Shown in pieces: positions 2,185 to 64,000 of a stretch of 64,000 nucleotides of DNA; position 1 is the stretch's first letter; every line of letters starts with the position of its first letter. Origin of the DNA: Rhodothermales bacterium (lineage in GTDB: Bacteria > Bacteroidota > Rhodothermia > Rhodothermales > JANQRZ01). The notes beneath the pieces were generated by a model. It was not told the DNA's origin and did not search any database. It was given only the letters and a program-made list of their open reading frames with translations. Where the stretch lies: positions 64,132-128,131 of the forward strand of contig JANQRZ010000024.1 of the NCBI GenBank assembly GCA_028284265.1, read 5' to 3'. A program made the position numbers and the translations under genes.

Positions 2185-5372
<3,188 letters not shown>

Positions 5373-5929: not shown

Positions 5930-7383
5930 TGCTGACCGGCCTCGACTATGCGGTGCTCGTCGTCTATCTCGTCGGCGTGCTGGGCTTCGGGCTGTGGGCC
6001 GGGGGGCGGCAGCAAACGACGACCGACTACTTCCTCGGTGGGCGCGATCTCCCGTGGTGGGCCGTGCTCTTTTCGATTGTGGCGACGGAGACGAGCACGC
6101 TGACCGTCATCGGCGTTCCAGCGGTGGCCTATGGCGGGTCGCTGCTGTTCCTGCAACTCACCTTCGGGTATCTGCTCGGGCGCGTCGTGGTGGCGGTGCT
6201 TCTGTTGCCGCGCTACTTCGATGGCGAGCAGGCGACGGCCTATGCGTTTCTCGGCGAGCGCTTCGGCGACGGGATGCGCGCGGCAGCCTCGCTCACGTTC
6301 ATGGGCACGCGCCTCCTCGCCGACGGCGTCCGCCTCTTCGCCACAGCAATTCCGCTCAAGGTCATCGCCGCGGCTGCCGGGTTGGACGTGTCGTATGCTA
6401 CCATCATCATCGCCATCGGCCTCGTCACCATCGCCTACACATTTGTCGGCGGGATCAAGGCGGTCGTGTGGATGGATGTCGTGCAGATGGGCGTCTACGT
6501 CGGCGGGGCACTCCTCGCGGTGGGCATCCTCCTCGGCGACGTACCGGGCGACTGGTGGAGCACCGCGAGCGCGTCGGGCAAGACGCAGGTGATTGATCTC
6601 GGCTTCGACCTGTCGTTCGCTGAGTGGATGGCGACGCCCTATACCTTGATCGTCGCGGTTGTTGGCGGGGCGTTCTTCTCGATGGCGTCGCACGGGGCGG
6701 ACCAACTCATCGTGCAACGGCTCTTGGCGTGTCGAAATCTGCGAGATGGGCAGCGGGCGCTCATCGGGAGCGGCGTCGTGGTGATCGGGCAGTTCGTACT
6801 CTTCCTGCTCGTCGGGCTGCTACTGTGGAGCTACTACGGCGGAGCGGACCTCGAAACCCTTGGCCTCGGTCGGGGCGATGAGGTGTTCCCGAAGTTTATT
6901 GTGGAGGAGATGCCGCCGGGCCTCGCGGGGTTGCTCTTGGCCGGGATCGTGGCGGCGGCGATGAGTACGCTCTCGTCCTCGCTCAATGCACTGGCGTCTT
7001 CGACCGTATTCGACCTGCGCGAGCGGTTGGGGCGGACGCCGCTCGGTGAGGACGCTGCGCTGCGCTTGAGCCGGTGGACGACGCTGGGGTGGGGCCTCGC
7101 GCTAATCGGTTTCGCCGCACTCTTCCAGTCGATGACCAATCCCGTCGTCGAGCTAGGGCTGGGGATCGCTTCATTCACCTATGGCGGCCTCTTGGGTGCT
7201 TTCCTGCTGGGGTTGGTGAGCCAGCGGGCGAGGCAGCGCGAGGCCCTCATCGCCTACGCTGCGACCCTCGTAGCACTCGGTTTCGGTGTGCAGACGGGCG
7301 TGCTCGCGTGGCCGCTCTACACCGCCGCCGGGGCGATGGTGACGGTGGGTCTCGGCGTGCTGCTCGGCTCAGGGCAGAGGTAA
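5929..7383 (+). CDS. Sodium:solute symporter family (SSF) transporter
   Basis: The protein has about 13 predicted TM helices. The N-terminal motif DYFLGGRDLPWWAVLFSIVATETSTLT is typical of SSF/SglT-PutP-like transporters. Confidence 0.85.
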   Translation: MLTGLDYAVLVVYLVGVLGFGLWAGGRQQTTTDYFLGGRDLPWWAVLFSIVATETSTLTVIGVPAVAYGGSLLFLQLTFGYLLGRVVVAVLLLPRYFDGEQATAYAFLGERFGDGMRAAASLTFMGTRLLADGVRLFATAIPLKVIAAAAGLDVSYATIIIAIGLVTIAYTFVGGIKAVVWMDVVQMGVYVGGALLAVGILLGDVPGDWWSTASASGKTQVIDLGFDLSFAEWMATPYTLIVAVVGGAFFSMASHGADQLIVQRLLACRNLRDGQRALIGSGVVVIGQFVLFLLVGLLLWSYYGGADLETLGLGRGDEVFPKFIVEEMPPGLAGLLLAGIVAAAMSTLSSSLNALASSTVFDLRERLGRTPLGEDAALRLSRWTTLGWGLALIGFAALFQSMTNPVVELGLGIASFTYGGLLGAFLLGLVSQRARQREALIAYAATLVALGFGVQTGVLAWPLYTAAGAMVTVGLGVLLGSGQR

Positions 7384-44557: not shown

Positions 44558-45766
44558 ATGCCGAAACTCCCTCGCGCCGTCCAAGAGCGCGCCGGTCGGA
44601 CATCGAGTCGGGCACCGCGCAAGGCTGGCTCCTATGCGGCGCTCGCTCTGCAAAGGAGCCAGCAGGGGGAACGGGCGAGTCAAGCTGTTCCTGAGACGAC
44701 GGGAGTATTGGAGACACTTAGAGCTGGTCGGAAGCCTCCTGTGCGCGCCGTGGTAGAGTTCACCCGGAGCCTCGCCGTCATGGTAAGCGCCCGGATTCCC
44801 GTGGTCGAAGCGCTGGAGACAGCCGCTCGACAGGTCGAGCACACGGCTCTCCAGACGACCCTTGCTGGGGTCGCCGAACGAGTGAGGAGCGGTGACAGCC
44901 TCTCGCTGGCCCTCGCCCAGCACCCGGAAATCTTCAGTGTGCTCTACGTGCACCTCGTCAGGGTAGGAGAGGTCGCAGGGCTTCTCGACCAGATGCTCTT
45001 GCGCCTTGCGGCCTACCTCGAAAACGAGCAGGTGCTTCGCCGTCGCCTCCGGCTTGCGATTGCCTACCCGGCGGTCGTCTTGGCTGTGACGGTCGGCGCA
45101 ACTGCTTTTCTACTGGCGGTCATCATTCCAACCTTTGCCGAGATGTTCGCCGACTTCGGAGCAGAGCTTCCGGCCCCGACACTCGCCGTAATTGCGGCCT
45201 CGGACTTTCTGCGCCGTTACGCGCTCGTGCTCGCGCTCTTCGGTATAGTGCTCGTCTTCTTGGTGCGCCGCGTCTTGGCAACGGATAAAGGAGCCGTTCG
45301 TTGGGACCAATTCAAGCTGCGCGTCCCGGTCATAGGCACGCTCTACCGCAAGGCACTCACCGCACGCTTCTGCAGCACGCTCGGCACGCTCGTCTCAAGC
45401 GGCGTTCCGCTCACGGAGGCGCTCGACGTCACGGCGGGAGCGGTAAACAACCGGGTCGTCGAGCGCGTGGTGCGCGAGATGAAGCGCCGAGTCACCCGGG
45501 GAAGCAGTCTCGCTGGTCCGCTCGAAACCGCCAGCGTATTCCCTCCGATGGTGGTTCAGATGGTCGCTGTTGGCGAGGAGACCGCTCGGCTCGGGGAGAT
45601 GCTAGCCCATGTAGCAGGGCACTTCGAGACGGAGGTTGATACCGCAGTTGACGCGCTGACGTCGGTCATCGAGCCGGTCATGATTGTACTGCTCGGCATT
45701 GTGCTTGGCGCAATTCTCATCTCGATTTATCTCCCAATGTTCGACCTAACCACGGCGATTCAGTGA
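44558..45766 (+). CDS. T2SS/T4P inner-membrane platform protein (GspF/PilC family)
   Basis: Two T2SSF repeats are present (FTRSLAVMVSARIPVVEALE..., FCSTLGTLVSSGVPLTEALD...) with three TM segments. The C-terminus IYLPMFDL is typical of the family. Confidence 0.9.
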   Translation: MPKLPRAVQERAGRTSSRAPRKAGSYAALALQRSQQGERASQAVPETTGVLETLRAGRKPPVRAVVEFTRSLAVMVSARIPVVEALETAARQVEHTALQTTLAGVAERVRSGDSLSLALAQHPEIFSVLYVHLVRVGEVAGLLDQMLLRLAAYLENEQVLRRRLRLAIAYPAVVLAVTVGATAFLLAVIIPTFAEMFADFGAELPAPTLAVIAASDFLRRYALVLALFGIVLVFLVRRVLATDKGAVRWDQFKLRVPVIGTLYRKALTARFCSTLGTLVSSGVPLTEALDVTAGAVNNRVVERVVREMKRRVTRGSSLAGPLETASVFPPMVVQMVAVGEETARLGEMLAHVAGHFETEVDTAVDALTSVIEPVMIVLLGIVLGAILISIYLPMFDLTTAIQ

Positions 45767-51564: not shown

Positions 51565-52914
51565 TCATTCGACACTCGACACTTCGGCACTCGAAAATTG
51601 GCTGTCTTTGATGGCGATGTAGACCGTCTCTTTCAACTCCTCGACCCACGCATTCATATCCCGCTGCCGCTTTTCCTGAAGGGCGAACTCTTCGATCAGT
51701 GGATAGTCGGTGGCGAGGGTCATGGGGTGGGCCGGGGTACGCTTCTGAAGCTTAACGATGTGGTAGGCGCGCTGCCCGTCAAGGAGGTCCACCTCAGCAG
51801 GATGGCTGACCTCGTCAACCTCCAGCGTGTCAATCGCCGTGTGCCACGCCGGGCTGAGGGCTTCGTAGCGGAGATCGCGGTCGCCGGTCTGGGGGACCGT
51901 GACGTTGCCGCCGCGCGCTGCCGAGGTTTCGTCCTCGGAGAACTCTTTGGCGAGCAGCGCGAAGGAGCCGCCCGCGAGGACTGAGTCGCGGACCATGGTG
52001 AGCGTGGCAATCGCCTCGCTCGGGTCGGTTTGCGATTCGTCGATGCGGATGAGGACGTGGTTGAAGTCCACCACGTCGCCGAGGCGGTTGTTGAGGCGCA
52101 TGACGTGGAACCCGAACTGCGTCTCAAAGACCTGGCTTAGTTCGCCGGGCTGGAGCGTTGCGGCGATAGCCCCAAACTCAGGGACGAGGTCGCGGATGTT
52201 GACGCGCTCGTAGCGCCCGCCGCGCTGCACGCTGCCGGGGTCCTGCGAGAACTGTCCGGCCAAGTCCTCGATGGTATCGGTGCCGGTGGCAATCGAGTCA
52301 CGGATGGCGTCGATGGTGGTGCGGGCGGCGTTGCGGGCGCGCTGGTCGATGGCCGGGAAGCGTACGATGTGGGCGACCCGGACGAGTTCGGGCACTTCGG
52401 GGAGCGAGTCGGTCGGGATCTCGGCGAACCACTCGCGGACCTCCTGCGGGGTGATACGGATCTGGAAATACTTGCGGCGCTGGAAGGTCTGGGCGAGGAG
52501 CTGGTCACGGACCTGGTCGCGGAAGTCCTCACGGATCTGGTTCACGCTCCGGCCATAGAGTTCGACCACCTGATCCTCGCCGCCGAGCTGACGGATGAGT
52601 GCGTCCGTGCGCTGGTCGAGCGCTTCGTTGACTTCATCCGGGGTGACGACGACCGTTGTGTCGCGCCCCGCGTGCTCGACGAGCACCTCCTGCGTGATGA
52701 GGTCGCTGAAGGCTTGACGGCGGACCTCGTCGGAGATCGCGCCGCCGCGTGCGAGTTGAAGCGACAGCGCCTCGACATCCGAGCGGAGAATGACATTACT
52801 CCCGACGACAGCAACGATGCCGTCTACCTCGCCGACAGGCTGGGCGGAGGCAGGCACGGAGCCGAGCAGGAGTGCGCCGGTGAGGACGACGAGAAGGCGG
52901 GGCAGAGGCATCAA
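51565..52914 (-). CDS. SurA-like periplasmic chaperone / parvulin peptidyl-prolyl isomerase
   Basis: A signal peptide and SurA_N-like region are followed by parvulin motifs (RVAHIVRF...GELSQVFETQFGFHVMRL) and a second degenerate rotamase region. Confidence 0.8.
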   Translation of the reverse strand: MMPLPRLLVVLTGALLLGSVPASAQPVGEVDGIVAVVGSNVILRSDVEALSLQLARGGAISDEVRRQAFSDLITQEVLVEHAGRDTTVVVTPDEVNEALDQRTDALIRQLGGEDQVVELYGRSVNQIREDFRDQVRDQLLAQTFQRRKYFQIRITPQEVREWFAEIPTDSLPEVPELVRVAHIVRFPAIDQRARNAARTTIDAIRDSIATGTDTIEDLAGQFSQDPGSVQRGGRYERVNIRDLVPEFGAIAATLQPGELSQVFETQFGFHVMRLNNRLGDVVDFNHVLIRIDESQTDPSEAIATLTMVRDSVLAGGSFALLAKEFSEDETSAARGGNVTVPQTGDRDLRYEALSPAWHTAIDTLEVDEVSHPAEVDLLDGQRAYHIVKLQKRTPAHPMTLATDYPLIEEFALQEKRQRDMNAWVEELKETVYIAIKDSQFSSAEVSSVE

Positions 52915-56213: not shown

Positions 56214-56795
56214 ATGGCGCCGGACGACCGTTCCCTCATCGAAGCGTTCCAAGCGGGCGACGAGTTCGCCTTCGTCACCCTGTACAACCGCTACAAAGCC
56301 TCCGTCTATGCCTTCTGTGCCAAGATGCTGCTCGACCGGGCGGCGGCGGAGGATGTGCTGCAAGAGACCTTCGTTCGGGTCTACGAGAACCGCGAGCGGC
56401 TCACGCGCCCCGGCTCATTCAAGGCGTGGCTCTTCACCATCGCTCGGAACCAGTGCCTGAACCAGCTTCGGCGGAGCGGGCGGCAGGTGCCCCTCGGCGA
56501 GACCGAGCCGACGGCGCGAGGGGAGACGCCGTTCTCGCAACTCATGAAGAGCGAACAGGTCGCGCTCGTCAACGAGTACCTCGGCCACCTCAGCCCGGAG
56601 TACCGCGAGGTGATCGTCCTTCGGGAATACCAGAACCTGAGCTACGAGGAGATCGCGGCGGTGACGCGCAACACGGTGTCGTCGGTCAAGAGTCGCCTCT
56701 TCAAAGCGCGCCGCAAGCTCGGCACCTTCCTTCGTCCGATCCTTGACCCCGACCCCGGCTCGGTGCCCACCTCGGCTGCAACCCGCAACGCCTGA
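56214..56795 (+). CDS. ECF-type RNA polymerase sigma-70 factor
   Basis: Region 2 is FVTLYNRYKASVYAFCAKML...AEDVLQETFVRVY. Region 4 is EYREVIVLREYQNLSYEEIAAVTRNTVSSVKSRLFKARRKL. Confidence 0.9.
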   Translation: MAPDDRSLIEAFQAGDEFAFVTLYNRYKASVYAFCAKMLLDRAAAEDVLQETFVRVYENRERLTRPGSFKAWLFTIARNQCLNQLRRSGRQVPLGETEPTARGETPFSQLMKSEQVALVNEYLGHLSPEYREVIVLREYQNLSYEEIAAVTRNTVSSVKSRLFKARRKLGTFLRPILDPDPGSVPTSAATRNA

Positions 56796-56833
56796 TTTCG
56801 TCTCGACGCCTGTCCTCCTGCTGATGACCTCTT

Positions 56834-57286
56834 GTGATGACTGACCACACCGAAGACTTGCTAAACCTCTACGTGGACGGCGAGCTACCGCTCGACCGGC
56901 AGGGCGAGCTGTTCGCCCACCTTGCTGAGAGCCGCGAGGCGCGGGTGCAATTCAACGCCCTCATGGACTTCCGCCTCGCCACGCGCATCGACGCCAACCC
57001 CGTCGCGCCCGCCGTAGACGAAGCGCTCTTCCAGCGGATCGACGAGCTTCGGGCCGGACCCGTCCGCGACCGGGCCGGGGACCGCCAGCCCTTTCGCGCC
57101 CTCCGTCGACGGGTGACGGTCGGGACCGCGCTCGCGCTTGTGGCACTCGTGATCGCCGTCGGCGCGCTCCTGCCGGGGCCCGAGCCGGTCGAGACCGTGC
57201 GAATCGTGCCCATTGAGCACGCCGAGCCGGTCTACGTGATCTACCCCGGCGTGACGGTCGAAGACGACACCCTTGAAGGGCAATAG
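56834..57286 (+). CDS. Anti-sigma factor (cognate to upstream ECF sigma)
   Basis: The gene lies immediately downstream of the sigma factor. The N-terminal anti-sigma pattern is LLNLYVDGELPLDRQGELFAHLAESREARVQFNAL, with a single TM helix (VGTALALVALVIAVGALL). The start is GTG/ATG at 56834/56837. Confidence 0.6.
   Translation: MMTDHTEDLLNLYVDGELPLDRQGELFAHLAESREARVQFNALMDFRLATRIDANPVAPAVDEALFQRIDELRAGPVRDRAGDRQPFRALRRRVTVGTALALVALVIAVGALLPGPEPVETVRIVPIEHAEPVYVIYPGVTVEDDTLEGQ
57251..57286 (+). repeat. Copy A of a 36-nt direct repeat (functional 3' end of the anti-sigma gene, VTVEDDTLEGQ*)
   Basis: The sequence is GTGACGGTCGAAGACGACACCCTTGAAGGGCAATAG. Copy B is at 57878-57913. Confidence 0.9.
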
Positions 57287-57300
57287 GCTGTCCATTGCTC

Positions 57301-57861
57301 ATGCGCAAAGCGATCCTCTGGCTTCTCGGCATCGCCCTACTTGCGCTCGCGTCGCCGGTTGTAAAGAATGTCTATCTCTTTGCTACCTATGAGCACGGTC
57401 ACGAAGCACTCACTCGAACTGCAGGGCAGACAGGTCAACTCGCAGGAGTCTGGGAAGGGACGTTTGACACGTATGAGTGCGGGATAGATCAGCGGCAGAG
57501 CTTTCGCCTCGCTCTGGACGCCTACGGAGAGGGGCAGCTAGACTACAGCTTCTTTGGAGATCGCATTGGTACGAGCGGTGCGCCGAATCTTTACTCATGG
57601 GCTGCGTTGCTTCCCTATGATCGAGATATGGTGAGGACTTACTCTGCATCCGTGCGTGATTCCAGCGGGGTTTTCGTAATCGAGCCGGGTGAGCCGTGGT
57701 TCTCCGAGTATCGGGAGACAGAGTACATGGCATACCATCTGCGAGGAGACTCGCTCTACTTCGCATACGTGAACGTTCCAAATGACGAGCCGAAAGAGTG
57801 GGGTTTGTGGTCTTCCGATCAACTCGTATCCGTAGAGGACCTGTTATTGGGCTGGTGGTAG
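57301..57861 (+). CDS. Hypothetical secreted protein (lower GC, bracketed by the 36-nt repeat)
   Basis: The signal peptide is MRKAILWLLGIALLALASPV. The protein is aromatic-rich, and no family was recognised. Confidence 0.5.
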   Translation: MRKAILWLLGIALLALASPVVKNVYLFATYEHGHEALTRTAGQTGQLAGVWEGTFDTYECGIDQRQSFRLALDAYGEGQLDYSFFGDRIGTSGAPNLYSWAALLPYDRDMVRTYSASVRDSSGVFVIEPGEPWFSEYRETEYMAYHLRGDSLYFAYVNVPNDEPKEWGLWSSDQLVSVEDLLLGWW

Positions 57862-57877
57862 TGTCTCTGTTTCAAGG

Positions 57878-57913
57878 GTGACGGTCGAGGACGACACGCT
57901 CGAAGGGCAGTAA
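57878..57913 (+). repeat. Copy B of the 36-nt direct repeat (orphan gene-end relic)
   Basis: The sequence is GTGACGGTCGAGGACGACACGCTCGAAGGGCAGTAA, identical to copy A at 31 of 36 positions. All 5 differences fall at third codon positions and are synonymous, including TAG to TAA. Confidence 0.9.
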
Positions 57914-57920
57914 TTAAGGC

Positions 57921-57949
57921 TTGACGCCGGGAGGCCGAAGGTGTATCCT
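57921..57949 (+). promoter_or_regulatory. Candidate sigma-70-like promoter for the asnB leader
   Basis: TTGACG (57921-57926) is separated by a 17-nt spacer from TATCCT (57944-57949). This is only a match to the generic -35/-10 consensus. The promoter consensus of this lineage may differ. Confidence 0.3.
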
Positions 57950-57976
57950 GTGACCGGCCCACGCCCGCAACGATCT

Positions 57977-58051
57977 ATGCTCTCGCTCAACGTCAATAAC
58001 GTGAATCCGAATCCGGCTCCCCGAGGGGTTGCGGAACCCGGTGCGCGTTGA
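57977..58051 (+). promoter_or_regulatory. Asn-rich leader peptide ORF upstream of asnB (MLSLNVNNVNPNPAPRGVAEPGAR*)
   Basis: This is a hand-translated 24-codon ORF. Five of the eight codons from 5 to 12 are Asn (AAC/AAT, 57989-58012). It lies between the candidate promoter and the terminator hairpin that precedes asnB. Confidence 0.55.
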
Positions 58052-58078
58052 CGACAGCGATCCATCCGGCATTCCAAG

Positions 58079-58110
58079 CGGCTCCTCCAGACGGGGGAGT
58101 CGCTTTTTTT
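58079..58110 (+). terminator. Intrinsic terminator/attenuator 20 nt upstream of the asnB start
   Basis: CGGCTCCTCC (58079-58088) pairs with GGGGGAGTCG (58093-58102) as 10 bp including 2 G-U pairs. The loop is AGAC, followed by CTTTTTTT (58103-58110). Confidence 0.7.
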
Positions 58111-58129
58111 GTCTCAACCTCCCGAACCC

Positions 58130-59800
58130 ATGTGCTCTATCCTCGGCATCCTCGAACCTCACGGTGCGGCGGACGACCTCCGCGCCACCGCCCTCCGCCT
58201 CTCCAAGCTCCAGCGCCATCGCGGCCCCGATTGGTCGGGCGTCTACGAATCTGACCGTGCGATTCTCGCGCACGAGCGCCTCGCCATCGTTGATGTGCTC
58301 CACGGCGCACAGCCGCTCACCGACGAGGCAGGCACCGTCGCCCTCGCCGTCAACGGGGAGATCTACAACCACCGCGCACTCCGCGACGGCCTCGCCACGC
58401 CGTACCCGTTCCAGACGGACTCCGACTGTGAGGTGCTGATCCCGCTCTACCGCGAGCTTGGGGCCGACTTCCTCGACCGACTGACTGGCATCTTCGCCTT
58501 TGTGCTCTACGACGCTGGGCGCGACCGCTACTTGATCGCCCGCGACCCCTACGGCGTGATGCCGCTCTACACCGGGCGCGACGAGCACGGGACACTCTAC
58601 GTCGCCTCTGAGATGAAAGCGCTCGTGCCGGTGTGCCAGCAGATTGAGGCGTTCCCACCGGGGCACGTCTGGGACAGTGAGGTCGGCGAGCCGCAACGCT
58701 ACTACACACGCGATTGGTGGACCTACGAGGCCGTCGAAGGCAACGATGCCGATCCCGCCGAGGTGCGGGCCGCGCTCGAAGCCGCCGTCAAGCGCCAGCT
58801 CATGACCGACGTGCCCTACGGCGTGCTTCTCTCCGGCGGCCTCGATTCCTCCGTTATCGCCGCCACCGCCAAGCGGTTCGCCGCCCGCCGCGTCGAGGAC
58901 GGCGATGAGACCGAGGCGTGGTGGCCGAGTCTCCACTCGTTCGCCATCGGCCTCGAAGGCAGCCCCGACCTCGCGGCGGCGCAGGAGGTGGCGGACTTCA
59001 TCGGGACCGAGCACCACGCCTTCCACTTCACTGTGCAGGAAGGGATCGACGCGCTCTCCGACGTGATCTATCACCTCGAGACCTACGATGTCACCACCGT
59101 CCGCGCCGCGACGCCGATGTATCTCATGGCTCGCCGCATCAAGGCGATGGGCATCAAGATGGTCCTCTCCGGCGAAGGCTCCGACGAAATCTTCGGTGGG
59201 TATCTCTACTTTCACAAAGCCCCCGACGCCCGCGCTTTCCACGAGGAGACCGTCCGCAAGCTCGACCGTCTCCACGCCTACGACTGCCTCCGCGCCAACA
59301 AGGCAATGGCCGCGTGGGGCGTTGAGGCCCGCGTGCCGTTCCTTGATCAAGAGTTCATCGACGTGGCGATGCGGCTCAACCCAGCGGCGAAGATGGCGAC
59401 GGACGGGAAGATGGAGAAGCACATCCTCCGCGAGGCGTTCGAGGACACGCTGCCCGCGTCGGTGGCGTGGCGACAGAAGGAGCAGTTCTCCGACGGCGTC
59501 GGCTACTCGTGGATCGACTCGCTCAAGGCCTACGCCGAGGAGCAGGTGACCGATGAGCAACTTGGACGCGCTGCTTTTCGCTTTCCGATCAACACACCCG
59601 ACACGAAGGAGGCGTACCTCTACCGGACGTACTTCGCTGAGCACTTTCCGCAGGATGCCTGCGCGCAGACCGTGCCGTGGGAAAAGTCCGTCGCGTGCAG
59701 CACGGCGACCGCGCTCGAATGGGACGCCGCCTTCGCTAGCGCCGCCGACCCCTCCGGTCGGGCCGTGCGCGGCGTGCACGCGGACGCCTACGACGGGTGA
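58130..59800 (+). CDS. asnB: Asparagine synthase (glutamine-hydrolysing)
   Basis: MCSILGIL starts with the catalytic Cys2 of class-II glutamine amidotransferases. It also has the GEIYNH motif, the synthetase motif LLSGGLDSS, and EGSDEIFGGY. The start was moved from 58109 to ATG 58130. Confidence 0.95.
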   Translation: MCSILGILEPHGAADDLRATALRLSKLQRHRGPDWSGVYESDRAILAHERLAIVDVLHGAQPLTDEAGTVALAVNGEIYNHRALRDGLATPYPFQTDSDCEVLIPLYRELGADFLDRLTGIFAFVLYDAGRDRYLIARDPYGVMPLYTGRDEHGTLYVASEMKALVPVCQQIEAFPPGHVWDSEVGEPQRYYTRDWWTYEAVEGNDADPAEVRAALEAAVKRQLMTDVPYGVLLSGGLDSSVIAATAKRFAARRVEDGDETEAWWPSLHSFAIGLEGSPDLAAAQEVADFIGTEHHAFHFTVQEGIDALSDVIYHLETYDVTTVRAATPMYLMARRIKAMGIKMVLSGEGSDEIFGGYLYFHKAPDARAFHEETVRKLDRLHAYDCLRANKAMAAWGVEARVPFLDQEFIDVAMRLNPAAKMATDGKMEKHILREAFEDTLPASVAWRQKEQFSDGVGYSWIDSLKAYAEEQVTDEQLGRAAFRFPINTPDTKEAYLYRTYFAEHFPQDACAQTVPWEKSVACSTATALEWDAAFASAADPSGRAVRGVHADAYDG

Positions 59801-59803
59801 CCT

Positions 59804-59894
59804 GTCATTGCGAGGAGGCCGAAGGCCGACGCGGCAATCTCCCGACGGCGACTCAGTCATTTGGAGATTGCTTCGTCGCTACGCTCGAAATGAC
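59804..59894. repeat. Imperfect palindromic hairpin element (REP/MITE-like) between asnB and gltX
   Basis: The left arm is GTCATTGCGAGG...GCAATCTCC and the right arm is GGAGATTGC...GCTCGAAATGAC. The inner 9-bp stem pairs 59834-59842 with 59863-59871. The outer arms GTCATTGCGAGG and GCTCGAAATGAC pair imperfectly. Confidence 0.6.
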
Positions 59895-60004
59895 AAACTA
59901 GGACTACGGACTGTACCTCTGCCTTTCACCCGGATTTGCACAACGCATGGGCGAGGCCGCGGCTATACTGAGGCGATCCTCCACTTCGCCTCACGGCCTC
60001 TCTC

Positions 60005-61483
60005 ATGTCCGACTCTGTCCGCGTCCGCTTTGCTCCCAGCCCGACCGGGTGGCTCCACATCGGCGGCCTCCGCACCGCGCTCTACAACTACCTCTTCGCC
60101 CGCCAGCACGGCGGCACGTTCGTCCTCCGCATCGAGGACACCGACCAGTCGCGTTACGTCGAGGAGGCCGAGCAGGATATCGTGGAGTCGATGCGGTGGG
60201 TCGGGCTGGAGGTCGACGAAGGCCCCGACAAGGGGGGCAACGTTGGGCCGTATCGCCAGAGCCAGCGGACGGACCTGTACCGCGAGCACGTCGACCAACT
60301 GCTGGCGAGTGGGCACGCCTACGTCGCCTTCGACACGGCGGAGGAGATCGACGCGATGCGCGAGCGTCTGAAAACGCCAGACAACCCCTCGCCGAAGTAC
60401 GACGCCGCGACGCGGATGCAGATGATGAACGCTCTCACGCTCGACGCCGACGAAGTCCAGCGGCGGCTCGACGCGGGCGAGGAGTACGTCGTCCGGCTGA
60501 AGGTGGAGCCGGGGCAGACGGTCCGGTTCGACGACCTCATCCGTGGGCCGGTGGCGTTCGAGACCGACACCGTGGACGATCAGGTGCTCCTTAAAAGCGA
60601 CGGCTTTCCGACCTACCACCTCGCGAACGTCGTGGACGATCACGCGATGCAGATTACGCACGTCATCCGGGGTGAGGAGTGGCTGCCGAGCACGCCGAAG
60701 CACGTCCTGCTCTACGACGCCTTCGGGTGGCCGCCGCCCGCGTTCGCGCATCTGCCGCTCATCATGTCGCCCACCGGGGGCAAGCTCTCGAAGCGCAACG
60801 CCGATAAAATGAGGATCCCGGTGTCGGTCAAGGACTACATCGCACAGGGCTACGAGCCGGAGGCCCTCGTCAACTTCCTCGCGCTCCTCGGCTGGAACCC
60901 CGGCGACGAGCGCGAACTGTTCACGCTGAGCGAGTTGGTCGAGGCCTACTCCATCGAGCGGACGGCCCACAGCGGGGCGCAGTTCGATATCGACAAACTC
61001 CAGTGGTTCAACGGGCAGTACGTCCGTGAGCTATCGCCCACTGAGATCGCCGAGCGTGCCCGCCCTGGAGTGGAGGAGCGTGTCGGACCGGTCGATCCGG
61101 CGCACCTCGAAGCCGTCGCGGCGCTGATGCACGAGCGGCTGACCTTCGCGCACAATCTCGCCGACGCTGCTTACTTCTTCCAAGACCCGACGACCTACGA
61201 CGAGCAGGGCCTCAAGAAGCGCTGGAAGGACGACAGCGCCGGCCTGATGCGCGCCTACGCCGACCGGCTCGAAGCCGACGACACCTTCACCGAAGAAAGC
61301 ACCGAGGCTGTGATGCGGCAACTCGGCGAAGACGAGGGAGCGGGTTTCGGACGGATCATCCACCCTGTCCGCCTCGCCACCACCGGCACGACCGCTGGAG
61401 CTGGCATGTTCGAGACGCTCGTCCTCATCGGGCGCGAGGCCACGATCCGCCGCCTCCGCCGCGCTGCCGACGAGTTGGGCTGA
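60005..61483 (+). CDS. gltX: Glutamate--tRNA ligase
   Basis: RFAPSPTGWLHIGGLRTALYNY carries the HIGH motif and KLSKR is the KMSKS-type motif. The protein is full length at 492 aa. Confidence 0.95.
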   Translation: MSDSVRVRFAPSPTGWLHIGGLRTALYNYLFARQHGGTFVLRIEDTDQSRYVEEAEQDIVESMRWVGLEVDEGPDKGGNVGPYRQSQRTDLYREHVDQLLASGHAYVAFDTAEEIDAMRERLKTPDNPSPKYDAATRMQMMNALTLDADEVQRRLDAGEEYVVRLKVEPGQTVRFDDLIRGPVAFETDTVDDQVLLKSDGFPTYHLANVVDDHAMQITHVIRGEEWLPSTPKHVLLYDAFGWPPPAFAHLPLIMSPTGGKLSKRNADKMRIPVSVKDYIAQGYEPEALVNFLALLGWNPGDERELFTLSELVEAYSIERTAHSGAQFDIDKLQWFNGQYVRELSPTEIAERARPGVEERVGPVDPAHLEAVAALMHERLTFAHNLADAAYFFQDPTTYDEQGLKKRWKDDSAGLMRAYADRLEADDTFTEESTEAVMRQLGEDEGAGFGRIIHPVRLATTGTTAGAGMFETLVLIGREATIRRLRRAADELG

Positions 61484-62210: not shown

Positions 62211-64000
62211 TCAACCGCCGAGTTTTTCCTGCAAGAGAGATTGGACCGCTTGGGCGTCGCCGCCTTTTCCGATGCGCCGCATCGTCTGGCCCATGAAGAA
62301 GCCGAGCAAGCGCTGCTCGCCCGCACGGTAGCGCTCCACCTCGTCCGGGTGCTCGGCGAGGACAGCGTCGATTTCGGGCGCGAGCGCCGCATCGTCGCGC
62401 ACGGCGGCGAGGCCCCGCGCTTCGACGACTGCCTCGGCGGTGCCGCCTTCGTTCACGAGCGCCGCGATTACCTCGCCTGCCGCCGTTCGTGTGATCGTTT
62501 GCTGCCCGATGAGACGGAGGACGTCGGCGAGGGCCTCCGGCGTGGCGGCAGACTCGGCGAGGGTCCGGTCGCCGAGGGCCGGGCGCAACTCATGAACGAG
62601 CAGAATCGCCGCCTCCCGCACGGAGGCTCCGACAGCGACGGTCGCCTCGAAAAGTGAGCGAAGGTCGGTGTCGGCGGCTAGGACTGCGGCTTCTTCCTCG
62701 CCCGTGCCGCGTGCGATGAGGGAGTCGTACTCGGCCCGCTCGATCTCTGACAACCCCGCGGCTGGGTCACGCGGGGCCGTAGGTTGTGCGGGGGTTTTCT
62801 GATTGCTGTTCGCTGCCTGCTGCTCGCTGCTCGCTGGCTGCTTCGCCCAGTTGTCTTTCAGCGCGACGATTCGGTTGAAGACGAGAGCATCCGGCGTGCT
62901 GTCCTCCGGGTCACGCCAGAAGAAGCCGAGTCGCTCGAACTGGTAGCGTGTATCTGCCCGATCATGCGCTACGCTTGGCTCGACAAAGCCTTGCGTCTCG
63001 ACGAGCGAGTCCGGGTTAAGCGCCTCGGTGATATCGTCGAGCGCGCCGGGATTCGGGTCGGTGAAGAGGCGGTCGTAGAGCCGGAATCGGGCGGGGAGTG
63101 CGTGCTCGGCCTCGACCCAGTGAATCACGCCACGCGGCTTCTCATCGTCCGAGGCGAGGCGGGCGTGTACAGCAGTAAGGGTGTCGCCATCCTTTTCGAC
63201 CTCGGTGCAAGTGACGACCGGACCGTGGCGGAGGCGGACGGTCGCGCCGGGGGAGAGACGTTTCCACTTCTTCGGCGGGTCTTCGGCGAAGTCGTCGCGC
63301 TCGATCCACAGCTCCGGCCCGAACGGGACCGGGCGCGAGGTCGGAGCACCGGCAGGTGGCTCGATGTCGTGCGGCCAGTACGGTGCGTCGATGATCTCCG
63401 GCTCGGCCCCGTCGATCACGAGCTTGAGCGGGTTCGTCACGGCCATCACGCGGGGGGCGATGGCGTTGAGGTCACTGCGGATGGCGTACTCGTAGCGGGC
63501 GAGGTCGATGCTGCCGTTGACCTTCGTCACGCCGATCTCGTGATAGAATGTGCGGAGTGCCTCGGGCCGGACGCCGCGCCGCCGCTGCGCCGCGAGCGTC
63601 GGCATCCGAGGGTCGTCCCAACCCGCAACGTGCCCCTCCTCGACGAGGCGGCGGAGCGTGCGCTTGCTCATCACCGTGTAGTCGAGGTTGAAGCGGGCGA
63701 ACTCGTACTGGTGATTGCGCGGCTCGGGGATGCCGATGGCGTCCAAGAACCAGTTGTAGAGCGGGCGGTTGACGTCGAACTCTAGCGTGCAGACGGAATG
63801 CGTGATGCCCTCGACCGCGTCGCCCTGGCCATGCGCCCAGTCGTAGAGCGGGTAGATCGCCCAGTCCTGTCCGGTGCGGTAGTGGTGTGCGTCGCGGCGG
63901 ATGCGGTACATCAGCGGGTCGCGCAGCTTCATGTTGTCGTTCGCCATGTCGATCTTCGCCCGGAGGACATGGCTGCCATCGGGATGCTCGCCGCGCCGCA
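62211..64000 (-). CDS. glnS: Glutamine--tRNA ligase with C-terminal YqeY/GatB-like appended domain; N-terminus beyond window end
   Basis: The frame stays open upstream of the listed Met to position 64000 (...GEHPDGSHVLRAKIDMANDNMKLRDPLMYRI, the GlnRS signature). The anticodon-binding beta-barrels follow. A low-complexity linker (SSEQQAANSNQKTPAQPTAPRDPAA) connects to a 181-aa helical tail ending LLGFFMGQTMRRIGKGGDAQAVQSLLQEKLGG. Confidence 0.9.
   Translation of the reverse strand, partial: RRGEHPDGSHVLRAKIDMANDNMKLRDPLMYRIRRDAHHYRTGQDWAIYPLYDWAHGQGDAVEGITHSVCTLEFDVNRPLYNWFLDAIGIPEPRNHQYEFARFNLDYTVMSKRTLRRLVEEGHVAGWDDPRMPTLAAQRRRGVRPEALRTFYHEIGVTKVNGSIDLARYEYAIRSDLNAIAPRVMAVTNPLKLVIDGAEPEIIDAPYWPHDIEPPAGAPTSRPVPFGPELWIERDDFAEDPPKKWKRLSPGATVRLRHGPVVTCTEVEKDGDTLTAVHARLASDDEKPRGVIHWVEAEHALPARFRLYDRLFTDPNPGALDDITEALNPDSLVETQGFVEPSVAHDRADTRYQFERLGFFWRDPEDSTPDALVFNRIVALKDNWAKQPASSEQQAANSNQKTPAQPTAPRDPAAGLSEIERAEYDSLIARGTGEEEAAVLAADTDLRSLFEATVAVGASVREAAILLVHELRPALGDRTLAESAATPEALADVLRLIGQQTITRTAAGEVIAALVNEGGTAEAVVEARGLAAVRDDAALAPEIDAVLAEHPDEVERYRAGEQRLLGFFMGQTMRRIGKGGDAQAVQSLLQEKLGG

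Follow-up and report, generated by a model that had tools for sequence, protein, structure and literature searches.

The asparagine synthetase gene asnB of a Rhodothermales bacterium (contig JANQRZ010000024.1; the whole stretch of 64,000 nucleotides that was analysed is called the window below) is preceded by a promoter-like site, a short open reading frame (ORF) crowded with asparagine codons and an intrinsic terminator. Based on comparison of this region with its relatives, we consider it likely that the element is a ribosome-mediated leader-peptide transcription attenuator, through which asnB would respond to the supply of charged tRNA-Asn. Its parts, including the RNA segments numbered 1 to 3 that could pair in alternative ways, are listed here in window coordinates, together with the evidence on which each rests.

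57921-57949 (+), promoter-like site, TTGACG (-35), 17-nt spacer and TATCCT (-10); the sole sigma-70-like match in a 4-kb scan
57977-58051 (+), leader ORF, 24 codons and a stop codon, product MLSLNVNNVNPNPAPRGVAEPGAR; a window-wide outlier in Asn density, with homologous ORFs in about 28 loci
57983-58060 (+), long hairpin of the untranslated RNA, predicted to sequester region 2; minimum-free-energy fold of 57950-58125
57989-58012 (+), Asn codon cluster, AAC, AAT, AAC, AAT and AAT as codons 5, 7, 8, 10 and 12; proposed ribosome stalling site
58013-58022 (+), region 1 (CCGGCTCCCC), a near-copy of the terminator 5' arm, predicted to pair with region 2 when no ribosome is present; free-RNA fold and 1:2 covariation
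58023-58036 (+), region 2 (GAGGGGTTGCGGAA), predicted 5' strand of the antiterminator; masked folds and 2:3 pairing across the family
58072-58088 (+), region 3, TTCC plus the terminator 5' arm AAGCGGCTCCTCC, common to antiterminator and terminator
58076-58110 (+), intrinsic terminator (the putative attenuator), 13-bp stem, AGAC loop and T7 run; sequence, folding and family covariation
58130-59800 (+), asnB, the putatively regulated gene, encoding a glutamine-hydrolysing asparagine synthetase of 556 amino acids; Pfam Asn_synthase (2e-90), GATase_7 and GATase_6

The anatomy of the element can be read directly from the window. The leader ORF runs from an ATG at 57977 to a TGA at 58049-58051, and its five Asn codons among codons 5 to 12 stand where the original prediction, an earlier note made on this DNA, had placed them. 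Among the 2,287 short ORFs of 10-60 codons on both strands of the 64-kb window, more than three Asn within a stretch of eight codons occur only in the leader ORF and in its two nested versions with upstream starts. These alternative in-frame starts are GTG codons at 57941 and 57950, which fall inside or directly beside the -10 box, making ATG 57977 the likely start of the leader. The promoter-like site had also been predicted, and a consensus scan recovered TTGACG-17-TATCCT as the single sigma-70-like match in 56500-60500, a region whose shuffled versions average 0.3 matches. Transcription is predicted to start near 57956, which would give a 5' untranslated region of about 21 nt with no Shine-Dalgarno sequence. 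The strong hairpin predicted at 58079-58102 is indeed present: its 10-bp core consists of CGGCTCCTCC (58079-58088) paired with GGGGGAGTCG (58093-58102) around the loop AGAC, and flanking A-U and G-C pairs extend the GC-rich stem to 13 bp (58076-58105). The core is followed by C58103 and seven T residues (58104-58110), the last of which lies 19 nt before the asnB ATG (58130), leaving no room there for a separate asnB promoter.

The mini-ORF and its run of Asn codons are conserved in relatives, as the original prediction would have it. An ORF of 18-37 codons with clustered in-frame Asn codons is present at approximately 28 non-redundant asnB loci, spread over at least three phyla, and promoter, ORF and terminator stand before asnB; terminators were located by folding, and among 27 related loci about 18 have a recognisable TTGACN-17/18-TAnnnT or GAnnnT site 5' of the leader ORF. 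The three closest genome matches listed are metagenome-assembled genomes (MAGs) from Rubricoccaceae, Longimicrobiaceae and Thermoanaerobaculia, with AsnB identities of 81%, 78% and 75%, respectively, and in all three asnB is preceded by a promoter of the TTGAC type, a short ORF holding 3-4 Asn codons and a GC hairpin followed by a T-run. Carriers in the Rhodothermota are the Rubricoccaceae MAG, Rubrivirga sp. SAORIC476 (L083), the type strain of Rubricoccus marinus (L237), in which the leader starts with GTG and the peptide contains TFNANPNPVSERSRG, and an 87%-identical relative (L082) with the leader peptide MFTSSYNLNANPNPTSRRSRGSRYSSR. The Gemmatimonadota are represented by the Longimicrobiaceae MAG (L002) and the type strain Longimicrobium terrae (L238, peptide MRATGCTLNNNNNRNPRTLCARAGCDV), and the Acidobacteriota by the Thermoanaerobaculia MAG (L003). 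About 20 further carriers are metagenome loci.

The metagenome loci were sampled with a clade-specific DNA pattern that is blind to the leader (MCSI, 23 codons, QRHRGPDW) and that yielded 120 loci. This pattern was chosen because a search with full-length AsnB returned mostly Gammaproteobacteria via universal motifs; among the matches listed in the full-length search of genomes, gammaproteobacterial asnB genes have no such leader. A covariance model built from 21 leaders matches 18 of the 120 loci at E < 1e-15, and beyond these there are one weak match and approximately four divergent candidates seen by eye. In the window the model has one match (57977-58114, 94.6 bits), although the window is one of the 21 training sequences and thus matches by construction; loci outside the training set also score high (93.7 bits for L145 and 96.3 bits for the R. 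marinus locus). In about 1 Mb of fetched DNA, every further full-length match lies just upstream of asnB on the same strand, and the model has no match in 14 asnB loci from outside the clade. Weak matches in the window at 6242-6329, 51799-51952 and 45473-45589 (E 0.16-0.66) were discarded as noise, so that there is no second copy. Many GC-rich members of the clade lack the element, and there asnB closely follows another gene; the leader is therefore one of several asnB arrangements in the clade. With AsnB identities of 75-81% across Rhodothermota, Gemmatimonadota and Acidobacteriota, the comparison suggests that gene and leader spread together between phyla.

The distribution of Asn codons depends on reading frame. 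Across the 28 non-redundant leaders, 107 AAY triplets fall in the leader frame vs 1 and 1 in the other two frames, a comparison biased by the fact that the leader frame was chosen by its Asn count. The triplets share one phase, which is always open from the start codon to the stop codon before the terminator. Asn accounts for 15.5% of leader residues, compared with 2.2% in the long ORFs of the window and 1.3% in AsnB proteins. Its rarer codon is used freely in the leaders (AAT 59, AAC 48; 55% AAT), whereas only 4 of 149 Asn codons (3%) in the asnB genes of the same loci are AAT. This 18-fold enrichment (Fisher p = 2e-23) would be expected if slow decoding had been selected. The number (2-7), spacing, position and synonymous form of the Asn codons all vary between leaders while the amino acid is kept, and the Asn cluster is the only thing that the leader peptides have in common; their C-terminal halves (..SRSRGPG..) look like translations of conserved RNA helices. 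Taken at the level of sequence, the ORF thus appears to behave as a translated sensor rather than as a by-product of RNA structure.

The RNA of the leader is predicted to adopt mutually exclusive structures. When free of ribosomes, the full-length window RNA is predicted to fold into the long hairpin and the terminator. The long hairpin joins the segment holding the Asn codons to the ORF's 3' end (CGTTGAC) and encloses the 1:2 helix; most relatives likewise have a CGTTG motif close to the stop codon, and the free full-length RNA forms the terminator in 27 of the 28 leaders. The near-copy of the terminator 5' arm that had been noticed at 58013-58022, CCGGCTCCCC, is present as claimed, and the suspicion that it allows alternative pairing was well founded, given that it pairs with region 2 in the free-RNA fold and that this 1:2 helix covaries.

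Support for the individual helices was sought across the family. In the terminator, formed by region 3 and its partner, region 4, pairing is kept in 98% of cells and compensatory changes occur at 7 of 12 pairs, an outcome that none of 500 shuffles match (21 sequences). The 1:2 helix is 77.6% paired vs 38-59% in slid registers, with a covariation score of 0.255 vs 0.161 in shuffles (0 of 500 reach it). The 2:3 antiterminator is 84.5-85.9% paired vs 41-57% in slid registers. A dinucleotide-shuffle test of the 2:3 duplex energy per sequence was weakly discriminating because GC-rich sequence pairs easily, and slid-register and cognate/non-cognate tests were used instead. The latter make use of the fact that the terminator arm differs in sequence by subfamily (GCGGCUCCUC, GCGGCCCCUCC, GGCGGCUCCC, AGCCCCCACCUGCC, GAGGCCCGCACC) and that region 2 changes along with it. 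Duplexes between cognate region 2 and terminator arm beat non-cognate ones by a centred difference of -2.54 kcal/mol, which none of 10,000 permutations reach, a result that owing to shared ancestry amounts to about five independent switches.

A stalled ribosome was modelled on the last Asn codon, masking the RNA to +12 nt from the first base of that codon. In the window the masked stretch reaches 58022 and region 2 follows directly at 58023, 13 nt beyond the position where the last Asn codon begins. In the nascent RNA so masked, GAGGGGUUGCGGAA (58023-58036) is predicted to pair with UUCC..GCGGCUCCUC (58072-58087) at -30.9 kcal/mol (z -2.65), and 1 of 200 shuffles is as good. The antiterminator alternative on which the original prediction depended therefore exists in the window, and it has an equivalent in 27 of the 28 leaders: under the corresponding mask, 8 nt or more of the terminator 5' arm pair with a segment that starts +13 to +23 nt from the last Asn codon, i.e., at the leading edge of a ribosome stalled there.

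From these features we infer ribosome stalling, a kinetic choice between structures and a response to asparagine. Transcription would begin from the promoter at 57921-57949, and the 24-codon leader would be translated as it is made. With Asn-tRNA plentiful, the ribosome would pass the Asn codons, reach the stop codon and leave. Region 2 would first lie inside the ribosome and would then be bound again by region 1 and the segment of Asn codons as the long hairpin (57983-58060) forms, leaving region 3 free to pair with region 4 as the terminator (58076-58110), and polymerase would halt 19 nt before asnB. With Asn-tRNA scarce, the ribosome would stall on the Asn codons, many of them the rare AAU. 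Standing on the last of these codons, it would cover region 1 to about 58022, exposing region 2 at its leading edge to pair with region 3 as the latter emerges; the resulting 14-bp antiterminator would block the terminator and polymerase would read into asnB.

Several observations weigh against this scheme. Some concern translation of the leader: no Shine-Dalgarno sequence precedes the ORF in the window, none is clear before any leader ORF of the family, and three relatives start the ORF with TTG or GTG. Others concern the terminating state. Region 2 ends 16-21 nt before the stop codon and is left uncovered by a ribosome parked there, and a footprint-only mask at the stop codon still permits 2:3 pairing thermodynamically in 10 of 28 leaders, including that of the window; the terminating state must thus depend either on kinetics or on renewed formation of the 1:2 hairpin. 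The terminator is moreover favoured at equilibrium throughout, by a median of 19.7 kcal/mol in free RNA and 12.9 kcal/mol with the ribosome stalled, so that the switch must be kinetic, as in trp, and equilibrium folding cannot decide the matter. In one subfamily (L134, L139, L199, L144) the strong hairpin is followed by a poor U-tract, CUCGUUCCUUAUCU, CUCUUUCGUUGUCG or similar, and either termination is weaker there or these hosts tolerate interrupted U-tracts.

The antiterminator is another weak point. Within the core family 2:3 varies little, its covariation is weak, with compensatory changes in two to three pairs, and its paired percentage is reached by 16-40 of 500 shuffles; support for it comes mainly from conservation, the slid-register control and the approximately five subfamily switches, which are few independent events. 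Compensatory changes, which the original prediction had proposed to look for in relatives, are accordingly clear for the terminator and significant for the 1:2 helix, while for 2:3 they remain weak within the core family. The sensing logic also needs tRNA-Asn to be charged from free Asn by asparaginyl-tRNA synthetase (AsnRS) and not by GatCAB transamidation. Finally, there is precedent for caution in Streptomyces coelicolor, whose candidate ilvB and leuA leaders looked like attenuators yet failed on mutation (PMC1262725).

A separate observation concerns the 5' ends of some leader messages. In five loci (L132, L189, L221, L218, L003) the best -10-like hexamer lies just 7-12 nt before the leader ATG, and the position of this hexamer suggests that their messages may be leaderless or nearly so.

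Among other explanations, the one that fares best, unlikely as we hold it to be, is that the leader RNA does switch asnB termination but that a protein, a small RNA, a ligand-binding fold or some other sensor, in place of a ribosome stalled on Asn codons, reads the signal, with the ORF incidental or having another role such as re-initiation or ribosome loading. The strong nucleotide conservation in AAUCC...CUCC...AGGAGYCGCGG and in CGUUG near the stop codon would suit such a sensor, as would the missing Shine-Dalgarno sequence, the resemblance of the C-terminal half of the peptide to a by-product of RNA structure, and the mutational failure of attenuator look-alikes (PMC1262725). However, it does not explain why AAY triplets keep to one always-open frame (107:1:1), why the leaders retain Asn while its codons differ in number, position and synonymous form, or why the rare AAT should be enriched 18-fold. 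Nor does it account for region 2 beginning at the modelled ribosome edge in 27 of 28 leaders, and the RNA matches no riboswitch, T-box or other Rfam family.

The codon bias raises the further question of what a translated leader would report. It is conceivable, though distinctly unlikely in our view, that the element is an undescribed attenuator family that moved with asnB between distant phyla and in which the heavy use of AAU, a codon otherwise avoided, makes read-through depend on both asparagine and the queuosine state of tRNA-Asn. Queuosine modification tunes the decoding of AAU vs AAC, and the element would in that case be a two-input sensor. Still more doubtful is the proposal that the translated leader controls termination yet reports general translation status, or the queuosine state of tRNA-Asn (position 34), rather than asparagine supply specifically. 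It draws on the unusual AAU bias (55% in leaders vs 3% in the neighbouring asnB genes) and on the presence of tgt directly downstream of asnB in L082. Against this, asnB, the product of which makes asparagine, is the one gene that the element precedes in every case, rare codons are equally well explained by raised sensitivity to tRNA charging, and the tgt linkage is confined to one locus, with gltX in its place in the window.

It is very improbable that the hairpin is merely the terminator of the upstream gene (57295-57861), with a promoter of its own driving constitutive asnB expression and the Asn-rich ORF due to chance, even though the hairpin does lie downstream of a gene on the same strand and the stretch from that gene to the leader yielded no other terminator. 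The hairpin starts more than 200 nt past the upstream stop codon, and the 19 nt from T-run to asnB ATG are too short for a promoter. Upstream genes differ between loci (an adh_short short-chain dehydrogenase family gene, an M48 peptidase, a CN hydrolase and unknowns) while asnB keeps its leader and terminator; the upstream gene of R. marinus is even followed by a terminator of its own, ahead of the leader promoter, and the ORF in the window is an extreme Asn outlier among 2,287 short ORFs. Synteny and spacing effectively refute this reading, which the original prediction had named as its own possible undoing: neighbours vary, a promoter-like site stands between in about 18 of 27 loci, and the spacing is 19 nt. 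Scarcely credible is the idea that the ORF encodes the precursor of a ribosomally made natural product modified by an AsnB-like enzyme, as by lasso-peptide cyclases, since, although asparagine-synthetase homologues act on leader-peptide-bearing precursors in some biosynthetic clusters (one such case in PMC13060819), it is effectively refuted by the orthology of the enzyme to housekeeping AsnB (full-length, with an N-terminal Cys) and by peptides that have only the Asn cluster in common, with a terminator between ORF and asnB and no other biosynthetic genes nearby.

A leader-peptide attenuator thus remains the reading we favour, and it can be set beside known systems. Rfam 15 gave no match at E up to 10 in the region of the window, save terminator-like noise, and none at gathering score in seven related loci. 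Leader-peptide attenuation is documented for Trp, His, Phe, Leu, Thr, Ile/Val and a few others, and the element would be an asparagine-specific addition to these classical attenuators, found in Rhodothermota, Gemmatimonadota and Acidobacteriota. Neither Rfam 15 nor the literature searched, which did not extend to the attenuator survey of Lopatovskaya et al. (2010), yielded a leader specific for asparagine or any cis-regulator of asnB in bacteria; within that compass, the view that no Asn-leader attenuator for asnB has been described holds.

Like the enterobacterial trpL, hisL, pheL, leuL, thrL and ilvL, the Asn leader would have its own promoter and a short ORF rich in codons for the end-product amino acid. 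The likeness extends to the predicted four-region RNA with 1:2, 2:3 and 3:4 alternatives, to the intrinsic terminator directly before a biosynthetic gene, and to the stalled ribosome, here modelled, that masks region 1 and so frees region 2. There are also clear differences. The amino acid is asparagine and the single target is asnB, the hosts belong to Rhodothermota, Gemmatimonadota and Acidobacteriota, and there is no similarity in sequence or in Rfam to the classical enterobacterial leaders, whose Rfam counterparts are Trp_leader, His_leader, Phe_leader, Leu_leader and Thr_leader. In contrast to E. coli trpL, region 2 lies 16-21 nt before the stop codon and not under the terminating ribosome. 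The Asn codons are interspersed (N-x-N-x-N) and a rare synonymous codon is used, and, again unlike classical leaders, a Shine-Dalgarno sequence is lacking and some relatives seem nearly leaderless.

Leader-peptide attenuators have also been predicted or studied outside the Proteobacteria, where those of Corynebacterium and Streptomyces (trp, ilvB, leuS) and of Staphylococcus and Listeria (ilv) place the mechanism in several phyla and in GC-rich genomes with GC-rich terminators (PMC1262725, PMC11857589, PMC5794164, PMC5864092). None of the Corynebacterium, Streptomyces, Staphylococcus or Listeria leaders concerns asparagine or asnB, however, and some failed mutational tests (PMC1262725). If confirmed in this role, the element would explain the control of asparagine synthesis in little-studied phyla and would make asparagine a new amino acid for a textbook mechanism. 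A covariance model of the kind used here could then annotate hundreds of genomes and metagenomes, and the leaders would offer a natural test case for rare synonymous codons tuning the sensitivity of a ribosome-stalling sensor. The element occurs in the cultured type strains Rubricoccus marinus and Longimicrobium terrae and is therefore directly testable.

Other routes to asparagine control work differently. In Firmicutes, T-box riboswitches with an Asn specifier upstream of asnS or asnA sense the charging of tRNA-Asn and choose between terminator and antiterminator, but a T-box binds the uncharged tRNA directly, via the specifier codon and the T-box loop, and translation is not needed; the Rfam scan found no T-box match in the window. 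In E. coli, asparagine feedback on asparagine synthesis runs through AsnC, a protein transcription factor that acts at the promoter of asnA, the gene for the ammonia-dependent enzyme. We know of no description of a specific control of asnB by asparagine in E. coli.

The gene downstream of the leader is, to judge from its sequence, a bona fide asnB, orthologous to that of the housekeeping enzyme. The protein begins with Met-Cys, as in class II amidotransferases, and is 66-72% identical over its full length to AsnB of Enterobacteriaceae and other Gammaproteobacteria among the matches listed; its closest relatives there come from Rubricoccaceae, phylum Rhodothermota. Upstream, a cluster on the same strand (56214-57861, +) encodes an extracytoplasmic function (ECF) sigma factor, a zf-HC2 anti-sigma factor and an unknown protein of 188 amino acids (57295-57861), and ends 60 nt before the leader promoter. 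No terminator was detected between the end of this cluster (57861) and the leader promoter, and read-through from the sigma/anti-sigma operon would also meet the attenuator.

Directly after asnB lies gltX, the gene for glutamyl-tRNA synthetase (GluRS; 60005-61483, +). Further on, at 62211-63947 (-), is a glutaminyl-tRNA synthetase (GlnRS)-like protein with tRNA-synt_1c and anticodon-binding domains and a C-terminal GatB/YqeY domain; fusion of GlnRS to such a C-terminal domain is known from Deinococcus. In the 87%-identical relative L082, the position directly downstream of asnB, taken by gltX in the window, is occupied by tgt (3040-4170, +). The product of tgt, tRNA-guanine transglycosylase, inserts the queuosine precursor into tRNA-Asn among others, and its adjacency to an AAU-rich leader may be a coincidence.

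Two loci depart from the common layout. In L145 (594-959, -) leader and terminator lie about 220 nt upstream of asnB, compared with 15-72 nt in other loci, with an unexplained spacer between. In L140 there is no Asn leader, and the 350 nt upstream of asnB hold six copies of the motif GGCTGGCACC(T) in the form of AGTGGCTGGCACCTG, AATCGGCTGGCACCT or AGGTGGCTGGCACCC. The TGGCAC core of this motif resembles the -24 element of sigma-54 promoters.

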